This document shows, piece after piece, positions 21,001 through 27,000 of a stretch of 62,797 nt of DNA (its first letter is position 1; each line of letters begins with the position of its first letter). A program made the position numbers. Origin of the DNA: Bdellovibrionales bacterium (GTDB lineage Bacteria; Bdellovibrionota; Bdellovibrionia; Bdellovibrionales; UBA1609); contig JAWLHR010000019.1 of assembly GCA_041690295.1 (NCBI GenBank), positions 1-62,797 on the forward strand, read 5' to 3'.

Positions 21001-24000
21001 GGCAGTGATGCGCAGTACGGCGGGCCTCGCGTGGTGGTGAAAGGTGGCGAGCGCGGCGGCAGCGTGGTGAGTGATGCCATGGGAACCGCTATGAATAGGA
21101 TGTCCAAGTCTTGCGTGGCCAAAGACGGCAAGGACGTTAAGACCGCGCGATTCAACCCGAACAAGCCCGGCTGCAAGGGAACTCCAAAAAAATTCAAAAA
21201 CGAGGAGTGCGTGAGAAAATGCGACAATCTCGGAAAAACCAGTTCACTGTTCATATAACCGGTTGGTTGGCGGCCACGATTTTTCTGATGGGCTCCGCGT
21301 TGGCCGCGGGCGAGTTTAATCCCGATTTGCATCAAACTCGGTGCAAAAACATTAGGGCGGTCGCGCAGGAGGCCGTTCAGTATTCGCTTTTGGGTGCGTG
21401 GGAACCGTACACCACCAAAGCCTGTTTCAAGGGAAAGCGTTACCGCTACTTCAATCCCCACGCGGCTTACCCGGAAGGCGATTTACTGAACGCCGATGGA
21501 ATTTTATTTTTCAAACAGGGCCGTGATTCATTCAAGATCAAAAACGTCCGGAAAATCGAAGACGAATACTCCATAGACGTGGAGTTCAAGATCAAAGGAA
21601 AGTCACTTAAAACAGTTTACAACTACGTGCCCGATCCCAAGTACACCGGCCGCACCGGCATTTGCGGGTTCGTGACGAATTCCCAACATAAGATCGTCCG
21701 GTCGGATTGTGTGGATCAGAAGAAGTTGAAAATTCCAGCCGCGAAACTTTAAATGCTTAACTCAGTGAGTTGGGACCGTGAGAGAAACCGTGGTCCCAAC
21801 TTGTTCCTTGGACTCAATTGCCCATTTTCCGTGAAGAGTACTCGCTAGATCTCTGACTTGTTTTAAACCGAGCCCGTTTCCCGAGGGTTTTCCAAAAGAA
21901 CCCCCCTCAGTTCTAAGCTTGGACAAAACCTCACTCGGAATGCCTCGCCCATGATCCTTGCAATTCATTCTAATACTCGAGGCATCAATCTCAAGTGTAA
22001 GGATTATTGGCTGACTGGGGGTGGACGCCTCAACTGCATTCGTCAATAAGTTCGAGATCATTCGGCACCACTCGTCTTTGTCGATACTAACGGGGGTTGT
22101 CTCATCAATGGTGTTCTTTATCTCAAGTTCGAAAATGTAATCGGGTTCACTTATATTTTTTTCGTCGATGGCCTGTTTAGTGTGTTTGACAATTTCTCCA
22201 ATGGTGGAATGTGGAATATGATAGCTTCTGGATTTTTCCAAAAGATCATCGGCAATCGTTAGAATTCGTTCTGAGACTTGCTTTATTAGGGTGAGTTCGG
22301 ATTGAGGCAAAGATTCTGCCTTTCGTTGGACAAACATTCTCAAAGCTGAAATAGGCGATCGAATATCATGAGCAACCTGGCGAGCAAGGTCTGAAGTTGC
22401 CTTTTGTTTTTCCAGCGCTATTAGTCGCTCCCTTCGAGCCTTCATTTGTTCGAATTCAACAATCTTCATAGACTCCAGGCTATCGAAATCTGTGGAAATC
22501 GGTGTGACAAGCTCGGTCTCAAATCGCCGATCCAGCCGCCGAATCAAGATAATTGCGATTCCTGATACAAGAGAAGTGAGTAGAAACGTTAAGACTATTG
22601 GAAAATTTAATTTAATCAACGGGCTTTGAATGATTAATTTATACTCCTGAAAACCAGGAATTATTTGAGTATCACTCATTTTGAAAAAATTTTTATCGTT
22701 TAATCCACAAATCTCCAGATTAGCCGGAAAGCTCATTATTGCGGTGTTATTCTTGCAAATACCAATTCCACTAAGAAGGACATTGTCGGCTGCATTATGA
22801 ACTAAAGCTTCCAGCATGATCCGATTTTTCTGCAGGAGTGCAACTTGGATAACCTTAATCATTGAATCCACGGAGGAGCGATATTTTTGATGATTTTCAG
22901 AGAGAACTAAAAAAATATAAAAAAGCTGAATCAAAAGAATGGAAAGCACAAAAAGCACTAGAGGGCGTTTTCCAAATTTTGAGTACCATTCTTTCAGAGA
23001 CATATTAAATCACAGTGGCGAAAACATAGTAAATTGATTGGATTCTCTTTCCTTAACTGAGTCCACCAGTCTGACTCGATTTCGGTTGTATGCGTGCATT
23101 CCACGCACAAATCCAACATGTACGTAAGGGACCTCTTCAAGAAACTTGATCGACACTTTTTGATAGTGTGAATCAAGATCATTGAGGTTAAGAATTGATC
23201 GACCTTCGTCTAATAGATTTGATACTTCTTCACGAAAGAACATAGGCGAGTGAATCGCGCCATCCTTCGCTAGAGAGTGAAACAATCCATCTGGATCACC
23301 GGATGCAATTGATGATCCGCCGACTAGAATGTCAGGTTCAAAGGTTTTATAAAACATTTTGTATTCGTTGCCGTGTCTCAATCCAACCTGAATTACTGGT
23401 GAATTTGACTCCTAGTTTTTCCATCAAATCTTGAACCCAATTGTTCATTTCCGACGTGACAATGAGTAAAGGATTCTTTTGGGTGGCTCTCACGAAAGCG
23501 GGTACAAACGGTTTCCCTTTTGCAACAAGTTCTTGAACCAAAGAGTCATCTAGGCGACCTGCTTGGAGTGGCAAATATGGTTGAGGGTCCAGAGTAAGAT
23601 TTTGCTGATAGTTTGGCGGAAGCTTTTCAAGCTTGATGTGTTTATGAATTAAATATTGGAAAGCAAGTCGATGTTCGCGATTGGAAAAAAAACGATTTTT
23701 GAGTCCGTTTAGTGTCAGTGTTAAATGGCCAGATTCCATGCCGGAAACACATGAAATTGAAGTCACTTTTCCAGGTCCACAAGCCGGAATATTGGCGCGG
23801 TCTGCAAAAGCATACACGTCGATTTCCCCGGATTCAAGGGCGTGCATTGCTGATTGTGGATCAACAATCGTAACTTCAACCTTTGAGTATCCCGCTTGGT
23901 CTTTAAAATATAAATTGCGTCGGAAGGTCAGTTTCGAGTCATTGGATGAATCAATAATGTACGGCCCAGTTCCTATTTGTAAATTGTTAGAAATTTTAAA

Positions 24001-27000
24001 TATCGCCATTCGGCCCGTAGCAAATTCGGAGAGCGCGGTGCGAAACGGCTTTTTAAACCGAATCTGAATCGTTGCCTTGTCGATTACTTTAATTCCGCGC
24101 AGTGATTTGGTGTGAGTGAACTCTTCGAATCCTTCGACTAAATAAAGAACATCTTGCAAACTGCTATTGGCGGATTGTGGCGTTAAGCTTAATCCATGCT
24201 CCCATGCTTTTTTTACATCCTGTGCGCTCAATGAGGTTCCATCTGAAAATTTGCGAGAAGTATCGAGAGTAAACGTGAAGGTTGTCAGGTCCTCAGAAAC
24301 TGTCCAACTCTTCGCGAGTCCAGGCAGTATAGTGCCACCACGACCTTCGCGCACCAAGCTTTCGAACTGATTTGAGAGCAGTGCATCCGCGTAAGCTGTG
24401 TGTTGCAATGCGGGGACTAGATTACCCCAATAGGTGGGGCAGCCTACGCGAAGTGTTGCTTCCATATCGGATCCTTTTTTAAAGGCCAAATGATTTTCAC
24501 AATTCCCATAAATCCAAGCTGAAGCTAGTAGCGTTACGAATAGTATTAATACTTTCGCCATTACCATACACTTCGAGTGGCGTCCGAGCCTGCCATAATG
24601 GCTTTGTCTTCTTTGTACATCTCAATCAGTTGATTCTTTAATTGTTGATCAGCGAAGACAAGTTCATCAATGCTTGTTATTCCGTGGGAAGCCAGGAATT
24701 CATAGTAGAATGCCGGCATTCTGTTATTTGCAAGTTTGTGGAGTACCTCTTCCCAGCTGGATTCAACTAATCTGCCAGGAGGTTCATTTGTACTTTGTAC
24801 GGCTGCAAATACCGTTGATGTGGGAAGTAGTAAGCAAAGTGAAACCAGAATTTTTCTTAATGGCATGGTAGCATCCCTTCGTTCAGTTGTTAGACTTTAC
24901 CCAGCAACCGTTATCAAATCCCAAAAAATCGCCTGTAGTGGAGTACGCAAAGCTCCGATCTCCTCCACACTTTCCTAGATATTTGCATCCTGAACAGCCT
25001 TTTATTTTTCGATTCCGCAAATCAGAAAATAATCGACTTGAAAAATAGAACTTAGAAAGTTCTGTCGTCCGTATTTCTCCAAGCTTAAGATCTGTGCGAC
25101 TTGAAGCTTTAATTTGTCCGTCATATCCGATAACAAGTCCCTGAAGACCGGGGTGACCCGAAGAGCCCAATTGTTCATCAATCAAACAGTAGAGCGGTTT
25201 ATCGGTATTCGTTGGCAGTTGTGTTTCTCGAGACCATTTCACCACCGCAATCATTGCTTCCTTTAGGTCGGCTCCTGTTAATGTGGAGTCCGCACTGTTG
25301 AAATGATGTTTGCCCGCGCCACTTGGAATAGCTCTGGTGTAATTTAGGCTGTCGACGCCTAGCTCCTTTGCAAACCGAAACATTTGCGGAATTTCATCTT
25401 TGGTTCGAGTAGAGAGAATCACCAAAACGTGAACGTCGAAGCCGTTTTCTTTTAGAGCCTTAATCCCATCTATGGCCTTTTTAAAACTGCCCTTTCCGCG
25501 AATGGCATCGTGCGCGGTTTCGTTTGGACTTTCTAATGAAACCTGAAAGAACAGAGGATAATCAACAAGCTTATGGATCAGTCGCGGAACTAGAGTGCCA
25601 TTGGTGGTAATGTGTACAAAGGTGCGATTCCATTTCTGGGTGATGTAATCGAGGAGTGGAAATAAGTACGGCGAGGCTAGCGGCTCACCGCCACAGATCA
25701 TAATGTTCGGGCGCGCACGGACTAGGTTTAGCAAACGTGCGTAGTTATCGATTGTTGACTTCCAGTCCTCAAGGCTCATCGCCCTGTCGTTCTTGTGGTG
25801 TGGATGGTAGCAATGAGCACAAGAGAGGTTACATGCGTTGGTGATGTCGAACTGAATTGAAATTGAGTTTAATCCAAGGCCTTGAATAATGGTTTTTTCG
25901 ATAACGGAGGTTGCGGCCACAAACGTCTCCTAGGGAGTAATGAGGCAATCCTTATAGCAATTTATAGACCCAGGGTTAGCCAAGTAGATTTAATCTGATT
26001 ACGTTTAGTCCTGTAATTTTTGCATGAGGATCTGGACTGTGCGCACTTGTGGACAGGTAGAGGCACTTCCTGGCTCTTTATAGAGCGATTCGAGGGTGTA
26101 GCCCTAGAAGCCTCGACTGAGGTTGTGTGCTTACGACTTAGTCGCTAAAGGTGTCTCGTTTTGAGCCAATAGCGCCCAATTTGTTGAGGTATTTTGAGTC
26201 GCCGTCTCCGGTCATCCCCACTTAATTAGGAACTTCATTTGCACATAGGATAGTATAAAAATTAGTGACCAAAATTGTAGATGACATGCGATTCTTCATT
26301 CCGCTTTCTTTGATGGCCTTGCTTTGTGGACAGTGGTCGTATGCCAATGAAACCACACCGGTAAATGGAATTGTTATATCGGATCCCGACACCAGTATTA
26401 CAGTTCCAGACTCTCTACTTGGGACACGCCGTCGGATCTTTCGGAATGTTTGGCCAAAGTACAATCCGCGAGCTCAAAGGACTCGGCTTATTTCCTTTGT
26501 TACTCATGTACCTTGTCTCAACCCATGTGTAACGAGATGGCGGAATCCTGGTGCAATTCTAAGCCGAATAAATGCTCAATCCCTGGATGCGCAGATAGTA
26601 GTTGTAGCGGGGATGATGGGTATGGCGATGAACGTTTTTGTCAGCCGGGACTGGCGAGAAATTCATCCGGAGACTGTATCTGTCCAGGTACAAACAAGGT
26701 AGCCGGACGAGTTGAAGAGTGCACAACTGCTGGCGGCAGCCCATCCACGGGCAGTCCTCCAGGCAGTTCCGCGCCGCCTCCCGGTGATCCCGCCCAAAAG
26801 CAAAAGGACATTCAGGCCTGTTTTCAGCAGGAGCAACAGGCGAGCGATTGCTGTGCAAACCCGGTTGCTTGTATTGGAGGAAGTATTTCTGGTGCCATCA
26901 GACTGAGGCCGGGCGAAGGTATAGCGGAAACCTGTCGGCGAATGCAGGAGGCGAGTCTGAGAGACGCGCAGATTCGCAATCAAGCGGCCAATGCCTGCAC

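Follow-up and report, generated by a model that had tools for sequence, protein, structure and literature searches.

The question raised by this locus is whether a radical SAM/SPASM maturase, the small protein encoded directly behind it, an SBP_bac_5 protein and a membrane histidine kinase form one system, and what such a system would do. All four are encoded within the window (the whole stretch of 62,797 nucleotides that was analysed), and their sequences suggest that, most likely, the radical SAM enzyme (rSAM) acts on a single serine close to the C-terminus of the small exported protein, the product being detected by the SBP and the kinase.

Gene organisation in the window and in related loci

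The four genes were found on the minus strand as the preliminary description had them, and their domains (Radical_SAM, SBP_bac_5, and HisKA with HATPase_c) were confirmed. The features are:

25956..25972, minus strand: weak sigma-54-like -24/-12 site, GG-N10-GC spacing, 36 nt 5' of the rSAM start (p=0.16)
24883..25920, minus strand: rSAM/SPASM maturase gene, 345 aa, Radical_SAM domain 1e-26
24561..24866, minus strand: small exported protein and putative RiPP precursor, 101 aa, beginning MPLRKILVSLCLLLPTSTVFAA; signal-leader, then four-helix body, then C-terminal tail
24801..24866, minus strand: signal peptide and probable leader, residues 1-22, a degenerate form of the family motif
24570..24572, minus strand: Ser99 codon, for the invariant serine of the tail (…SDATR-S-VW), where modification is proposed
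23347..24567, minus strand: SBP_bac_5 N-terminal frame, 406 aa, domain match 4e-37, hydrophobic N-terminal anchor
23357..23360, minus strand: A-run with one base more than the homologues (homologue register), giving the SBP frameshift
23010..23381, minus strand: SBP C-terminal frame, 123 aa
21762..23003, minus strand: membrane histidine kinase, 413 aa, HisKA (QVAHDIRSP) and HATPase_c

The gap between the rSAM gene and the small ORF is 16 nt, with an RBS-like GGGA 5' of the latter, and the precursor stop overlaps the SBP start as TAATG. The reading of the small ORF as 101 aa was upheld by six full-length relatives with 37–46% identity (the eighth row of the search was an unrelated repeat protein), and ten pairs of related precursors at other loci showed purifying selection with pooled pN/pS of 0.23 in the signal, 0.31 in the body and 0.41 in the tail; judged by these comparisons the small ORF is a genuine gene.

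The operon of rSAM, small exported protein, SBP_bac_5 and histidine kinase was found in 63 distinct loci, in agreement with the claim that the gene order recurs in scattered Bdellovibrionota. When considering the 52 loci with at least 450 nt downstream of the rSAM gene, a small ORF follows in 51 (50 by HMM and L034 by eye), as had been claimed for a signal-peptide ORF in this gap, the signal being predicted from sequence features. The SBP is present in 43/45 loci, the kinase then follows in 37/39, and a response regulator lies directly upstream in 22/44, the window copy not being among these; the order is far more regular than chance would give. From 235 near-complete genomes, searched in order to reach cultured hosts, one addition came, G685. 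None of the 80 viral loci listed matched at family level (best 29% identity), nor did any plasmid at E<=1e-20. Two to three copies of the cassette occur in five genomes, with differing tails in most.

The precursor is absent in L044 and L068 and the SBP in L056 and L217, which speaks against a circuit joining them. In L282, L284 and L285 the maturase or the precursor is deleted while SBP and kinase are still intact in frame, which favours the circuit. In L025, L035 and L239 it is the receptor side that has decayed; losses thus fall on both sides, which weighs against it.

The window copy is atypical, with its SBP frameshift, degenerate leader and lack of an adjacent regulator; the frameshift, the missing regulator and the weak sigma-54-like site (p=0.16) all count against the circuit. 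Scraps of the locus were found in four DNA runs, and in run X3 a contig (164 nt, depth 2.4) has one base fewer at 23357, so that the frameshift is absent from it, and is otherwise identical. The leader scored 6.7, below the best control (7.7), and scores were also poor in four of the six nearest relatives of the window precursor, both of which count against the circuit. No second precursor was detected in the window's genome by the profile of its own subfamily or the leader HMM, nor any VirB4-like match with the query used. The kinase has a periplasmic part of ~100 aa with two invariant cysteines between two hydrophobic segments, and lacks the C-terminal extension found in most relatives.

The small protein and its maturase

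A basic-hydrophobic-AxA layout, seen by inspection, predicts a signal peptide in the small protein, with a twin arginine in some members. The signal peptides share the family motif [KR][KR]hhLxhLxhhP[ILV]xSh[SA]FAA, a simple form of which occurs in 38/43 precursor clusters compared to 0/20 sister-cassette precursors and 9/175 control signal peptides; the held-out leader score exceeded the best of the 175 controls in 35/43. In the two long subfamilies the signal peptides align and the bodies do not. Most clusters (34/43) are 92–130 aa long but nine are just 49–60 aa, so that the helical body appears dispensable and the earlier worry that the mature protein is too long for a RiPP loses its ground.

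Near the C-terminus a single Gibbs column holds one serine in 41/43 clusters (F=263.8 versus 185±6 in 15 shuffles), and in an alignment of 32 precursors only a tyrosine and this serine are invariant. As far as the alignments go, the family-wide features are a Pro-centred signal/leader and a single tail serine, and nothing more. YY(D/E)F and Ser-x-Trp, earlier put forward as candidate conserved motifs, occur in only 6/43 and 7/43 clusters; they are therefore subfamily features and were ruled out as the modified motif. The pattern [SGDA][GAK]xxS was found in 31/43 clusters against 8.8 in shuffles, although it was derived from the same data. Against the circuit, serine makes up 15.6% of the tails.

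Foldseek with the model of the small protein gave nothing at E<=0.001 (best VIA Z 5.0), and an Atlas search no match above 0.80. An RRE origin of the precursor body is no more than a weak lead: against PqqD, the wHTH-like subfamily reached 1.4% by hhalign (P=0.038), and both the subfamily of the window and the YcaO precursors 0.3%, and the wHTH-like and YcaO precursor bodies had 13 columns in common (12%).

In the maturase the CxxxCxxC motif (C30/C34/C37 in the window) is present in 118/120 homologues, the other two being N-terminally incomplete, and the AuxII cysteines C309, C312, C318 and C339 (CxxCx5C...C) in 120/120. The AuxI positions, which we take from analogy with anSME, are Cys-free: the first is without cysteine, S274 and R275 occur in 120/120, and position 321 is D, S, N or Y (D321 in the window). 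The same assignment was made by analogy with AhbD (PMC10452713). No PqqD/RRE match was obtained in the rSAM or small ORF of the window, nor in 12 wHTH-like precursors. By these comparisons none of the AuxI cysteines is left in the family, nor is the RRE. The AlphaFold model (pLDDT 91) had its best Foldseek matches in SkfB, SuiB and anSME (E<=3e-12), and the nearest full-SPASM relatives found were operons of rSAM, PqqD and a small Cys-ended peptide, which are RRE-dependent peptide maturases.

The radical SAM/SPASM rows reported earlier from NCBIfam were reproduced, all below cut-off, and several known classes could be set aside. Sactipeptides and ranthipeptides are excluded by cysteine in 0/43 tails and 1/43 mature regions. 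Triceptides are defined by a three-residue motif that opens with an aromatic; such a residue is found at Ser-2 in 0/43 clusters and at Ser+2 in 16/43, and the DynA and GrrM models scored below cut-off, which rejects triceptide, darobactin and dynobactin. Mycofactocin (MftC/MftA) was rejected on a C-terminal tyrosine in 1/43 and on 96 bits with TIGR03962 (cut-off 265).

Sister cassettes, receptor and promoter

The same kinase subfamily was found in 40 other regions, 24 of them with a different enzyme in the rSAM slot (YcaO in 15, aKG-HExxH in 8, and DUF4135, LanM-type, in 1), and 23/24 carry a signal-bearing small ORF. All nine aligned YcaO-linked tails have an invariant cysteine, and the HExxH-linked tails read ..IFD..ARMD/ARID, five cassettes having IFD/IYE..(A/L)R(M/I/A)D; for PosA (IFDTQQQQ-ARMD) cleavage and amidation are reported (PMC12636437). 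Judged by motif, the sister tails fit their respective enzymes, ARMD included. An enterococcal-type pheromone released from the signal peptide is disfavoured by the invariant tail serine and the enzyme-matched sister tails.

The SBP clade is nearly confined to the cassettes or their remnants, its closest named members are Opp/Nik-type, and no ABC permease was seen beside SBP-kinase in cassette ORF lists read by eye. Distances of SBP and rSAM correlate moderately (Spearman 0.70, 31 loci). A predicted complex of SBP and mature precursor from the intact cassette L232 scored 0.21 (controls not folded) and speaks neither for nor against binding.

A sigma-54 site scoring at least 10 precedes 12 of the 18 regulator-led cassettes, as against 22 of 1604 control ORFs, so that the regulator-led operons are predicted in silico to be transcribed from such a promoter; lying before the cassette's own NtrC-type activator it would, if activated by it as proposed, give positive feedback. 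Scans for sigma-70 promoters and terminators stayed at chance level. With the LuxO model the cassette regulator reached 308 bits, short of the cut-off.

A proposed circuit and its alternatives

We consider it fairly probable that the cassette is an autoinducing modified-peptide circuit of agr-like logic that exports its peptide through Sec and uses SBP and kinase as its receptor. This reading follows from the fixed gene order, invariant serine, leader, sigma-54 site, sister enzymes and receptor-only remnants taken together, and the earlier proposal, that the small protein is modified by the rSAM, secreted and then detected by the SBP and kinase of its own cassette, is supported by the sequence evidence from serine, leader, promoter and sister cassettes. 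A sigma-54 promoter would drive a single operon of NtrC-type activator, rSAM, precursor, SBP and kinase. Before export the rSAM, which lacks an RRE and has AuxII alone, may dock in the cytoplasm on the conserved signal peptide as leader and carry out one radical reaction at the tail serine, both steps being suggested by conservation. Oxidation at the serine, giving an aldehyde or breaking the backbone so that the variable residues after it are lost, is the foremost candidate though short of an even chance; in this rough split a cross-link between the serine and a small residue at -3/-4 is clearly less likely, epimerisation slightly less again, and other chemistry least so. The precursor would leave via Sec, signal peptidase would remove the leader and host proteases would probably trim the dispensable body. 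The membrane-anchored, transporter-less SBP would, as gene coupling suggests, bind the modified tail and switch the adjacent kinase, which would phosphorylate the activator and re-induce the operon while product builds up with kin density or confinement. The window copy would need an activator in trans.

No outer-membrane exporter, importer or protease gene was seen in the cassette ORF lists, so the product would reach the same compartment as the receptor, which counts against the circuit and favours a cell-autonomous loop with the same chemistry and receptor. The modified protein would then remain in the periplasm, where Sec export ends next to the anchored SBP, as a bistable switch reporting Fe-S, SAM or anoxia (rSAM), O2 or aKG (HExxH), ATP (YcaO), or Sec or protease activity; the predominance of long precursors and the folded body in that of the window agree with this. 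We find this main alternative unlikely, as the in-frame receptor-only derivatives fit best with a ligand from other cells, paralogue tails diversify within one genome, and enzyme swaps ignore the cofactor.

Rather less probable still is that the small protein becomes a RiPP-type product serving a function of its own (in metal binding, antagonism or the envelope), while the SBP-kinase senses something unrelated, for instance prey peptides or a metal chelate, and merely controls production. Among small-protein RiPPs exported by Sec, bufferins are separately regulated (PMC11626156), and the Opp/Nik affinity and the only moderate SBP-rSAM correlation point the same way, but the near restriction of the SBP clade to cassettes, bodies that are dispensable and non-homologous between subfamilies, Cys-free tails and the lack of any immunity gene or metal-ligand motif seen argue against it. 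That the rSAM works on a small molecule by AhbD/NirJ-like tetrapyrrole chemistry, the small protein being a non-substrate periplasmic partner of SBP or kinase, is very improbable: AhbD and NirJ2 are among the top NCBIfam rows and an AuxII-only SPASM with serine and acidic replacements is described for AhbD (PMC10452713), but scores of 114–127 bits lie far from the cut-offs of 395–500, the ORF lists showed no heme-pathway genes next to the loci, the full-SPASM enzymes closest to the family act as peptide maturases, and peptide enzymes fill the same slot in sister cassettes.

The autoinducing cassette would seem to be a Gram-negative circuit for peptide signalling, with modifying enzymes that can be exchanged, that has so far gone undescribed, no description having been found, predators included, in the mostly open-access articles searched. 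More tentatively, and with the balance slightly against it, Bdellovibrionota and some Elusimicrobiota may have a modular superfamily of Gram-negative peptide quorum-sensing cassettes in which a sigma-54 activator, a Sec-exported precursor, SBP_bac_5 and a kinase accompany interchangeable enzymes (rSAM, YcaO, aKG-HExxH, LanM-type, B12-rSAM), chemical mark and sequence setting the channel; the rSAM branch would be a new Ser-directed RiPP class with the signal peptide as leader and without AuxI or RRE, and predators or integrative elements would count kin or sense confinement in prey. If true, a widespread Gram-negative circuit of RiPP enzyme, Sec export and SBP-kinase would break the usual split, as outlined in PMC8895600, of modified peptides signalling in Gram-positives and small molecules in Gram-negatives. 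It would offer enzymology a defined substrate (one serine) for an RRE-less, AuxII-only rSAM family without a curated model; its small parts could all be reassembled in E. coli, where the paralogues, differing in their tails, would be ready orthogonal channels.

CBP-ChiS pairs a periplasmic binding protein with a kinase, and NirJ, like AhbD, is an AuxI-less SPASM enzyme with a tetrapyrrole substrate. Vibrio LuxQ functions in complex with LuxP (PMC8895600), and LuxP-LuxQ-LuxO likewise joins binding protein and kinase to a downstream sigma-54 activator, but LuxPQ and CBP-ChiS respond to small molecules or sugars that are produced elsewhere, whereas the cassette encodes peptide and maturase in the receptor operon. 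In the agr (AgrBDCA) and ComQXPA peptide quorum sensing of Bacillota (see PMC8895600 and PMC10885120) precursor, maturase, membrane kinase and regulator also share one operon, the peptide varies between copies and there is positive feedback (only predicted for the cassette); the cassette differs in its Gram-negative host, rSAM in place of AgrB/ComQ, Sec-type signal, SBP_bac_5 beside a two-TM kinase as receptor and sigma-54 NtrC-type activator as output. Bufferins, oxazolins and RiPP-lipoproteins have long Sec-signal precursors, cytoplasmic modification and signal peptidase maturation, as predicted here, and the signal peptide is suggested as part of enzyme recognition (PMC11626156, PMC12452194, PMC13056109); it was dispensable for bufferin modification under overexpression (PMC11626156), which counts against the circuit. 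These systems use MNIO chemistry on cysteine, which in the bufferin type yields Cys-derived heterocycles, and bind metal, with no SBP-kinase receptor described in the sections drawn on, whereas the cassette has Cys-free tails and no MNIO.

Streptococcal RaS-RiPPs (streptide, TqqB, NxxcB) similarly tie an rSAM/SPASM enzyme and precursor to quorum sensing, but there SHP/Rgg sensing leads to the RiPP as its output, a dedicated transporter is present and the nucleophile is activated by an auxiliary cluster (PMC9389541), whereas in the cassette the RiPP is the proposed signal and the rSAM lacks AuxI ligands and RRE. The AuxII-only AhbD, none of which had been studied biochemically according to PMC10452713, resembles the cassette enzyme in having serine and an acidic residue in place of the AuxI cysteines and differs in its tetrapyrrole substrates and heme-pathway context; identity with AhbD or NirJ was rejected, as the family cut-offs are not reached and that context is absent from the ORF lists. 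PflA/PosA with the HEXXH enzymes PflC/PosC, for which the available part of PMC12636437 mentions no receptor, resemble not the rSAM cassette but the tails of the five HExxH sister cassettes.

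Layout and distribution of the cassette

When analysing the window, the four-gene set claimed in the preliminary description was found complete and at the places described:

25920-24883, minus strand: radical SAM (rSAM) maturase
24866-24561, minus strand: small ORF, the proposed precursor
24567-23347 and 23381-23010, minus strand: SBP_bac_5 peptide-type binding protein (SBP), in two frames
23003-21762, minus strand: histidine kinase

The spacing is tight, with 16 nt between the rSAM gene and the small ORF, a small ORF stop that overlaps the SBP start and 7 nt between SBP and kinase, and the GC content is 40–45% across 22001-26000 compared with ~51% in most of the window. 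The break in the SBP reading frame was located in an A-run (23357-23360), where a 164-nt contig of run X3 (depth 2.4) has one base fewer and is otherwise identical, and SBP homologues keep a continuous register across the site. Old decay of the SBP therefore appears less likely than a mutation at strain level or a mistake in assembly, though a single contig of low depth is slender evidence.

Searches with the maturase revealed matches in 14 of 401 genomes at phylum level and 23 of 384 at order level, with only one among 17 other genomes of the same genus. Named source organisms of the relatives (proteins alone, without gene context) are Bdellovibrionales, Oligoflexus, Pseudobacteriovorax and, for one protein, Elusimicrobiota. 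Typing of 101 loci by SPASM gave 57 with this family's "SSR" type, which lacks the AuxI cysteines, 38 with a full SPASM and six assigned to neither; a cassette-type SBP was seen in none of the 38 full-SPASM loci, some of which have short flanks. When genomes had been added and duplicates merged (73 loci, 63 distinct), a small ORF was found in 50 of the 52 loci with at least 450 nt downstream and, by eye, in one more (L034), the SBP in 43/45, the kinase in 37/39 and a response regulator directly upstream in 22/44, the counted loci being kin and not independent events. The cassette is real and conserved, with exceptions: the precursor is absent in L044 and L068 and truncated in L025, L217, L241 and L244, and the SBP is absent in L056 and L217. 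One locus (L245, G601:C2) duplicates cassette L233, and its rSAM gene contains an insertion-sequence-like ORF. A 4.5-kb contig labelled Chryseobacterium, which may be misbinned, ends in the start of a family maturase (L006:4298-4495).

The maturase and the precursor tail

Across 120 homologues of the maturase the four AuxII cysteines are invariant, while the AuxI positions have no cysteine, being S274-R275 in 120/120 and D, S, N or Y at 321. A subset of AhbD is reported to have lost the AuxI cysteines in the same way, with Ser and an acidic residue as replacements (PMC10452713). None of the NCBIfam models reached its cut-off with the window's rSAM and a domain scan of the cassette found no RRE, and the predicted structure (pLDDT 91) is similar to SkfB, SuiB and anSME. 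The enzyme deviates at 8 of 78 conserved columns (family median 1) and, since its four closest relatives deviate equally (8–10 columns), it is a divergent subfamily and not a decaying gene.

The closest full-SPASM relatives retrieved (28–34% identity) are, by gene context, peptide maturases: PqqD follows them in 14/14 scanned cases and a peptide of 43–52 aa with a YxxP-type leader and a terminal CxxCxxC is located downstream in all nine loci inspected (L073, L083, L085, L086, L092, L097, L099, L103 and L109). For another full-SPASM rSAM, L074, the best models are ACGX/AhbD, with GeoRSP lower and all under cut-off.

To describe the precursors, 77 complete sequences were grouped into 43 clusters, after dropping the truncated or doubtful L025, L056, L217, L241 and L244. 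They are 49–130 aa long and either lack a body (9 clusters) or have a YY helical (20, the window's type) or wHTH-like one (14), the two long types being alignable over the signal peptide only. This signal is leader-like, [KR][KR]hhLxhLxhhP[ILV]xSh[SA]FAA, and a model trained on two body types and scored on the third beats the best of 175 controls (crudely picked G000 signal peptides, G000 being the genome under study) in 35/43 clusters. A simple leader motif is present in 38/43 clusters vs 0/20 sister-cassette precursors; the fit is poor for the window's own precursor and 4/6 of its closest relatives. In the subfamily of L024, L026, L238 and relatives the N-terminus reads S/T-R-R-x-x-L, which resembles a twin-arginine signal, and most other precursors have KK or RK.

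Common to the tails is one Ser 1–10 residues before the end, with small residues three and four positions ahead of it. In 41/43 clusters this Ser occupies a single Gibbs column (F 263.8 vs 185±6 in 15 shuffles, run with fewer restarts), and of the two columns that are invariant among 32 aligned rows it is one. The pattern around it, defined post hoc, occurs in 31/43 clusters vs 8.8 in 2000 shuffles, and within subfamilies its surroundings are fixed (TR-S, P-S-x-W, KKGSGGE-S) while the body drifts. Among the 43 clusters Cys is absent from every tail and no tail has an aromatic residue at -2 from the Ser, which rules out sactipeptide, ranthipeptide and triceptide logic.

Proposed receptor, regulator and sister cassettes

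The cassette SBPs form a sharp clade related to Opp, Nik and PrgZ proteins and match in 26/384 genomes. Eleven matches have no known maturase; five are cut by contig ends and one has a frameshifted maturase, while L282 and L287 show only a maturase stub, L285 a precursor remnant and L284 and L286 neither, with intact SBP and kinase frames in L282, L284 and L285. Damage is also found on the receptor side (L025, L035, L239).

The response regulator found upstream resembles NtrC, with a GAFTG-type motif in 13/22, and in three loci a shortened receiver-Fis regulator takes its place. Promoters were scored with a sigma-54 consensus. In 12/18 regulator-led cassettes a site scoring at least 10 lies no more than 95 nt from where the regulator starts, compared with 22 of 1604 control ORFs of G000, which contains rpoN; 7/25 regulator-less cassettes have a site at p<0.05. 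The window's own sigma-54-like site is weak (p=0.16), and a cognate regulator was not identified in G000.

Among 83 genomes of the family, 36 contain matches to a profile of the kinase, at 78 places in total. Of 40 such regions outside rSAM cassettes, selected by score and flank length, 24 have a RiPP-type enzyme next to the SBP or the kinase. It is YcaO-like in 15 (two recognised by clustering and 13 from Pfam matches at E<=0.01, several of them below cut-off), aKG-HExxH in eight (7/7 scanned exceed the TIGR04267 cut-off) and DUF4135/LanM-type in one. A small signal-bearing ORF is present in 23 of these 24 sister cassettes, mostly downstream of an NtrC-type regulator, and across the 40 regions a sigma-54 site of at least 10 accompanies 8 of the 22 regulators of this type.

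The tails match the enzymes. Cys is found in 11/12 tails of the main YcaO group (it is missing in G000's L332 and also in L295 and L300), Ser/Thr runs accompany the DUF4135 enzyme, and 5/8 HExxH-linked tails read IFD/IYE..(A/L)R(M/I/A)D. This motif is shared with PosA, a characterised HEXXH substrate (IFDTQQQQ-ARMD) in which cleavage at that place gives an amide (PMC12636437). The match is the strongest external support for the view that the small proteins are enzyme substrates modified near the C-terminus.

Several related clusters were observed. The YcaO sister cassette of G000 (C4:133462-137300; L332:7466-11294) has a 54-aa signal-bearing ORF, SBP5, YcaO and kinase, and its precursor tail contains Thr. 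At G000:C2:28440-35206 (L246:8441-15207) a RiPP B12-rSAM C-methyltransferase (TIGR03975, exceeding its cut-off at 505 bits), preceded by a 48-aa ORF, is divergent from methyltransferase-SBP5-MFS-kinase genes of the same kinase subfamily. At G000:C14:72669-76823 (L247) SBP5 is followed by a kinase in two ORFs, with MFS divergent, and no maturase was seen there. In L248 (genome G235) two further clusters lie beside the rSAM cassette (4716-10493 and 15401-19676): SBP5-YcaO-kinase, and a YydG-like rSAM with a 244-aa protein, a probable SBP and a probable kinase. In L293, L297, L298, L301, L305 and L311 the same kinase subfamily occurs with Peripla_BP_6, NMT1 or ABC_sub_bind binding proteins, some with small-molecule enzymes alongside (ornithine cyclodeaminase, methyltransferase); these are possible small-molecule make-and-sense cassettes.

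Proposed circuit and genomic surroundings

In the mechanism that we propose around the observed gene coupling, conservation patterns, promoter motif and enzyme class, the rSAM would dock on the precursor leader and carry out a radical reaction at the tail Ser, the precursor would be exported by Sec and trimmed, and the SBP would bind the product and activate the kinase, giving feedback. As a first guess for the reaction, oxidation with possible loss of the followers is placed before a short cross-link and the latter before epimerisation; oxidation comes first because the number of residues behind the Ser is variable, as is also the case behind the Cys and the ARMD of sister cassettes. That the precursor is the rSAM substrate we regard as very probable, and sensing of the product by the SBP-kinase pair as likely; for the product as a cell-to-cell signal we have a mild preference. 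The working logic is like that of agr and ComQXPA, but the cassette belongs to neither.

RiPP precursors with a Sec signal have been reported, with the remark that they are rare (PMC11626156, PMC12452194, PMC13056109). Peptide autoinducers are ascribed to Gram-positive bacteria (PMC8895600), and in streptococci quorum sensing has RaS-RiPPs among its outputs (PMC9389541). The cassette is apparently undescribed so far: a literature search, with subscription journals and supplements outside its scope, found no description, and the accessible portions of PMC8939145 and PMC10885120 do not mention it.

VirB4-like genes are close to 7/32 long rSAM loci, and 6/40 other regions contain VirB4-like genes or related ones of conjugation type. 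This suggests that in some hosts the cassettes are carried on, and perhaps control, integrative (conjugative) elements. In G000 the query used gave no VirB4-like hit. By inspection, VirB4-like and pilin-like genes lie within 10 kb of the rSAM cassettes L024, L026, L030, L032, L230, L231 and L238 and of the other-region cassettes L307, L309, L315, L319 and L320.

Elsewhere in the window, a small-molecule biosynthetic operon 2 kb downstream of the cassette kinase (14977-19804, minus strand) contains a PLP cysteine-synthase-like enzyme, methyltransferase, ATP-grasp L-amino-acid ligase, MFS and GTP cyclohydrolase II. The region 26450-31531 harbours two tandem duplications, one of secreted proteins rich in Cys and Gly (74% across 1216 nt) and one of secreted protease-like proteins without Pfam match (89.5% over 801 nt). 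A possible defence locus (6184-11268) consists of a PIN_12 protein and a reverse transcriptase operon with two ORFs lacking assignment, the best PADLOC rows for the reverse transcriptase being generic RT and UG17, and a WD40 protein is paired with an FGE-sulfatase-domain protein at 12544-14990 (minus strand).
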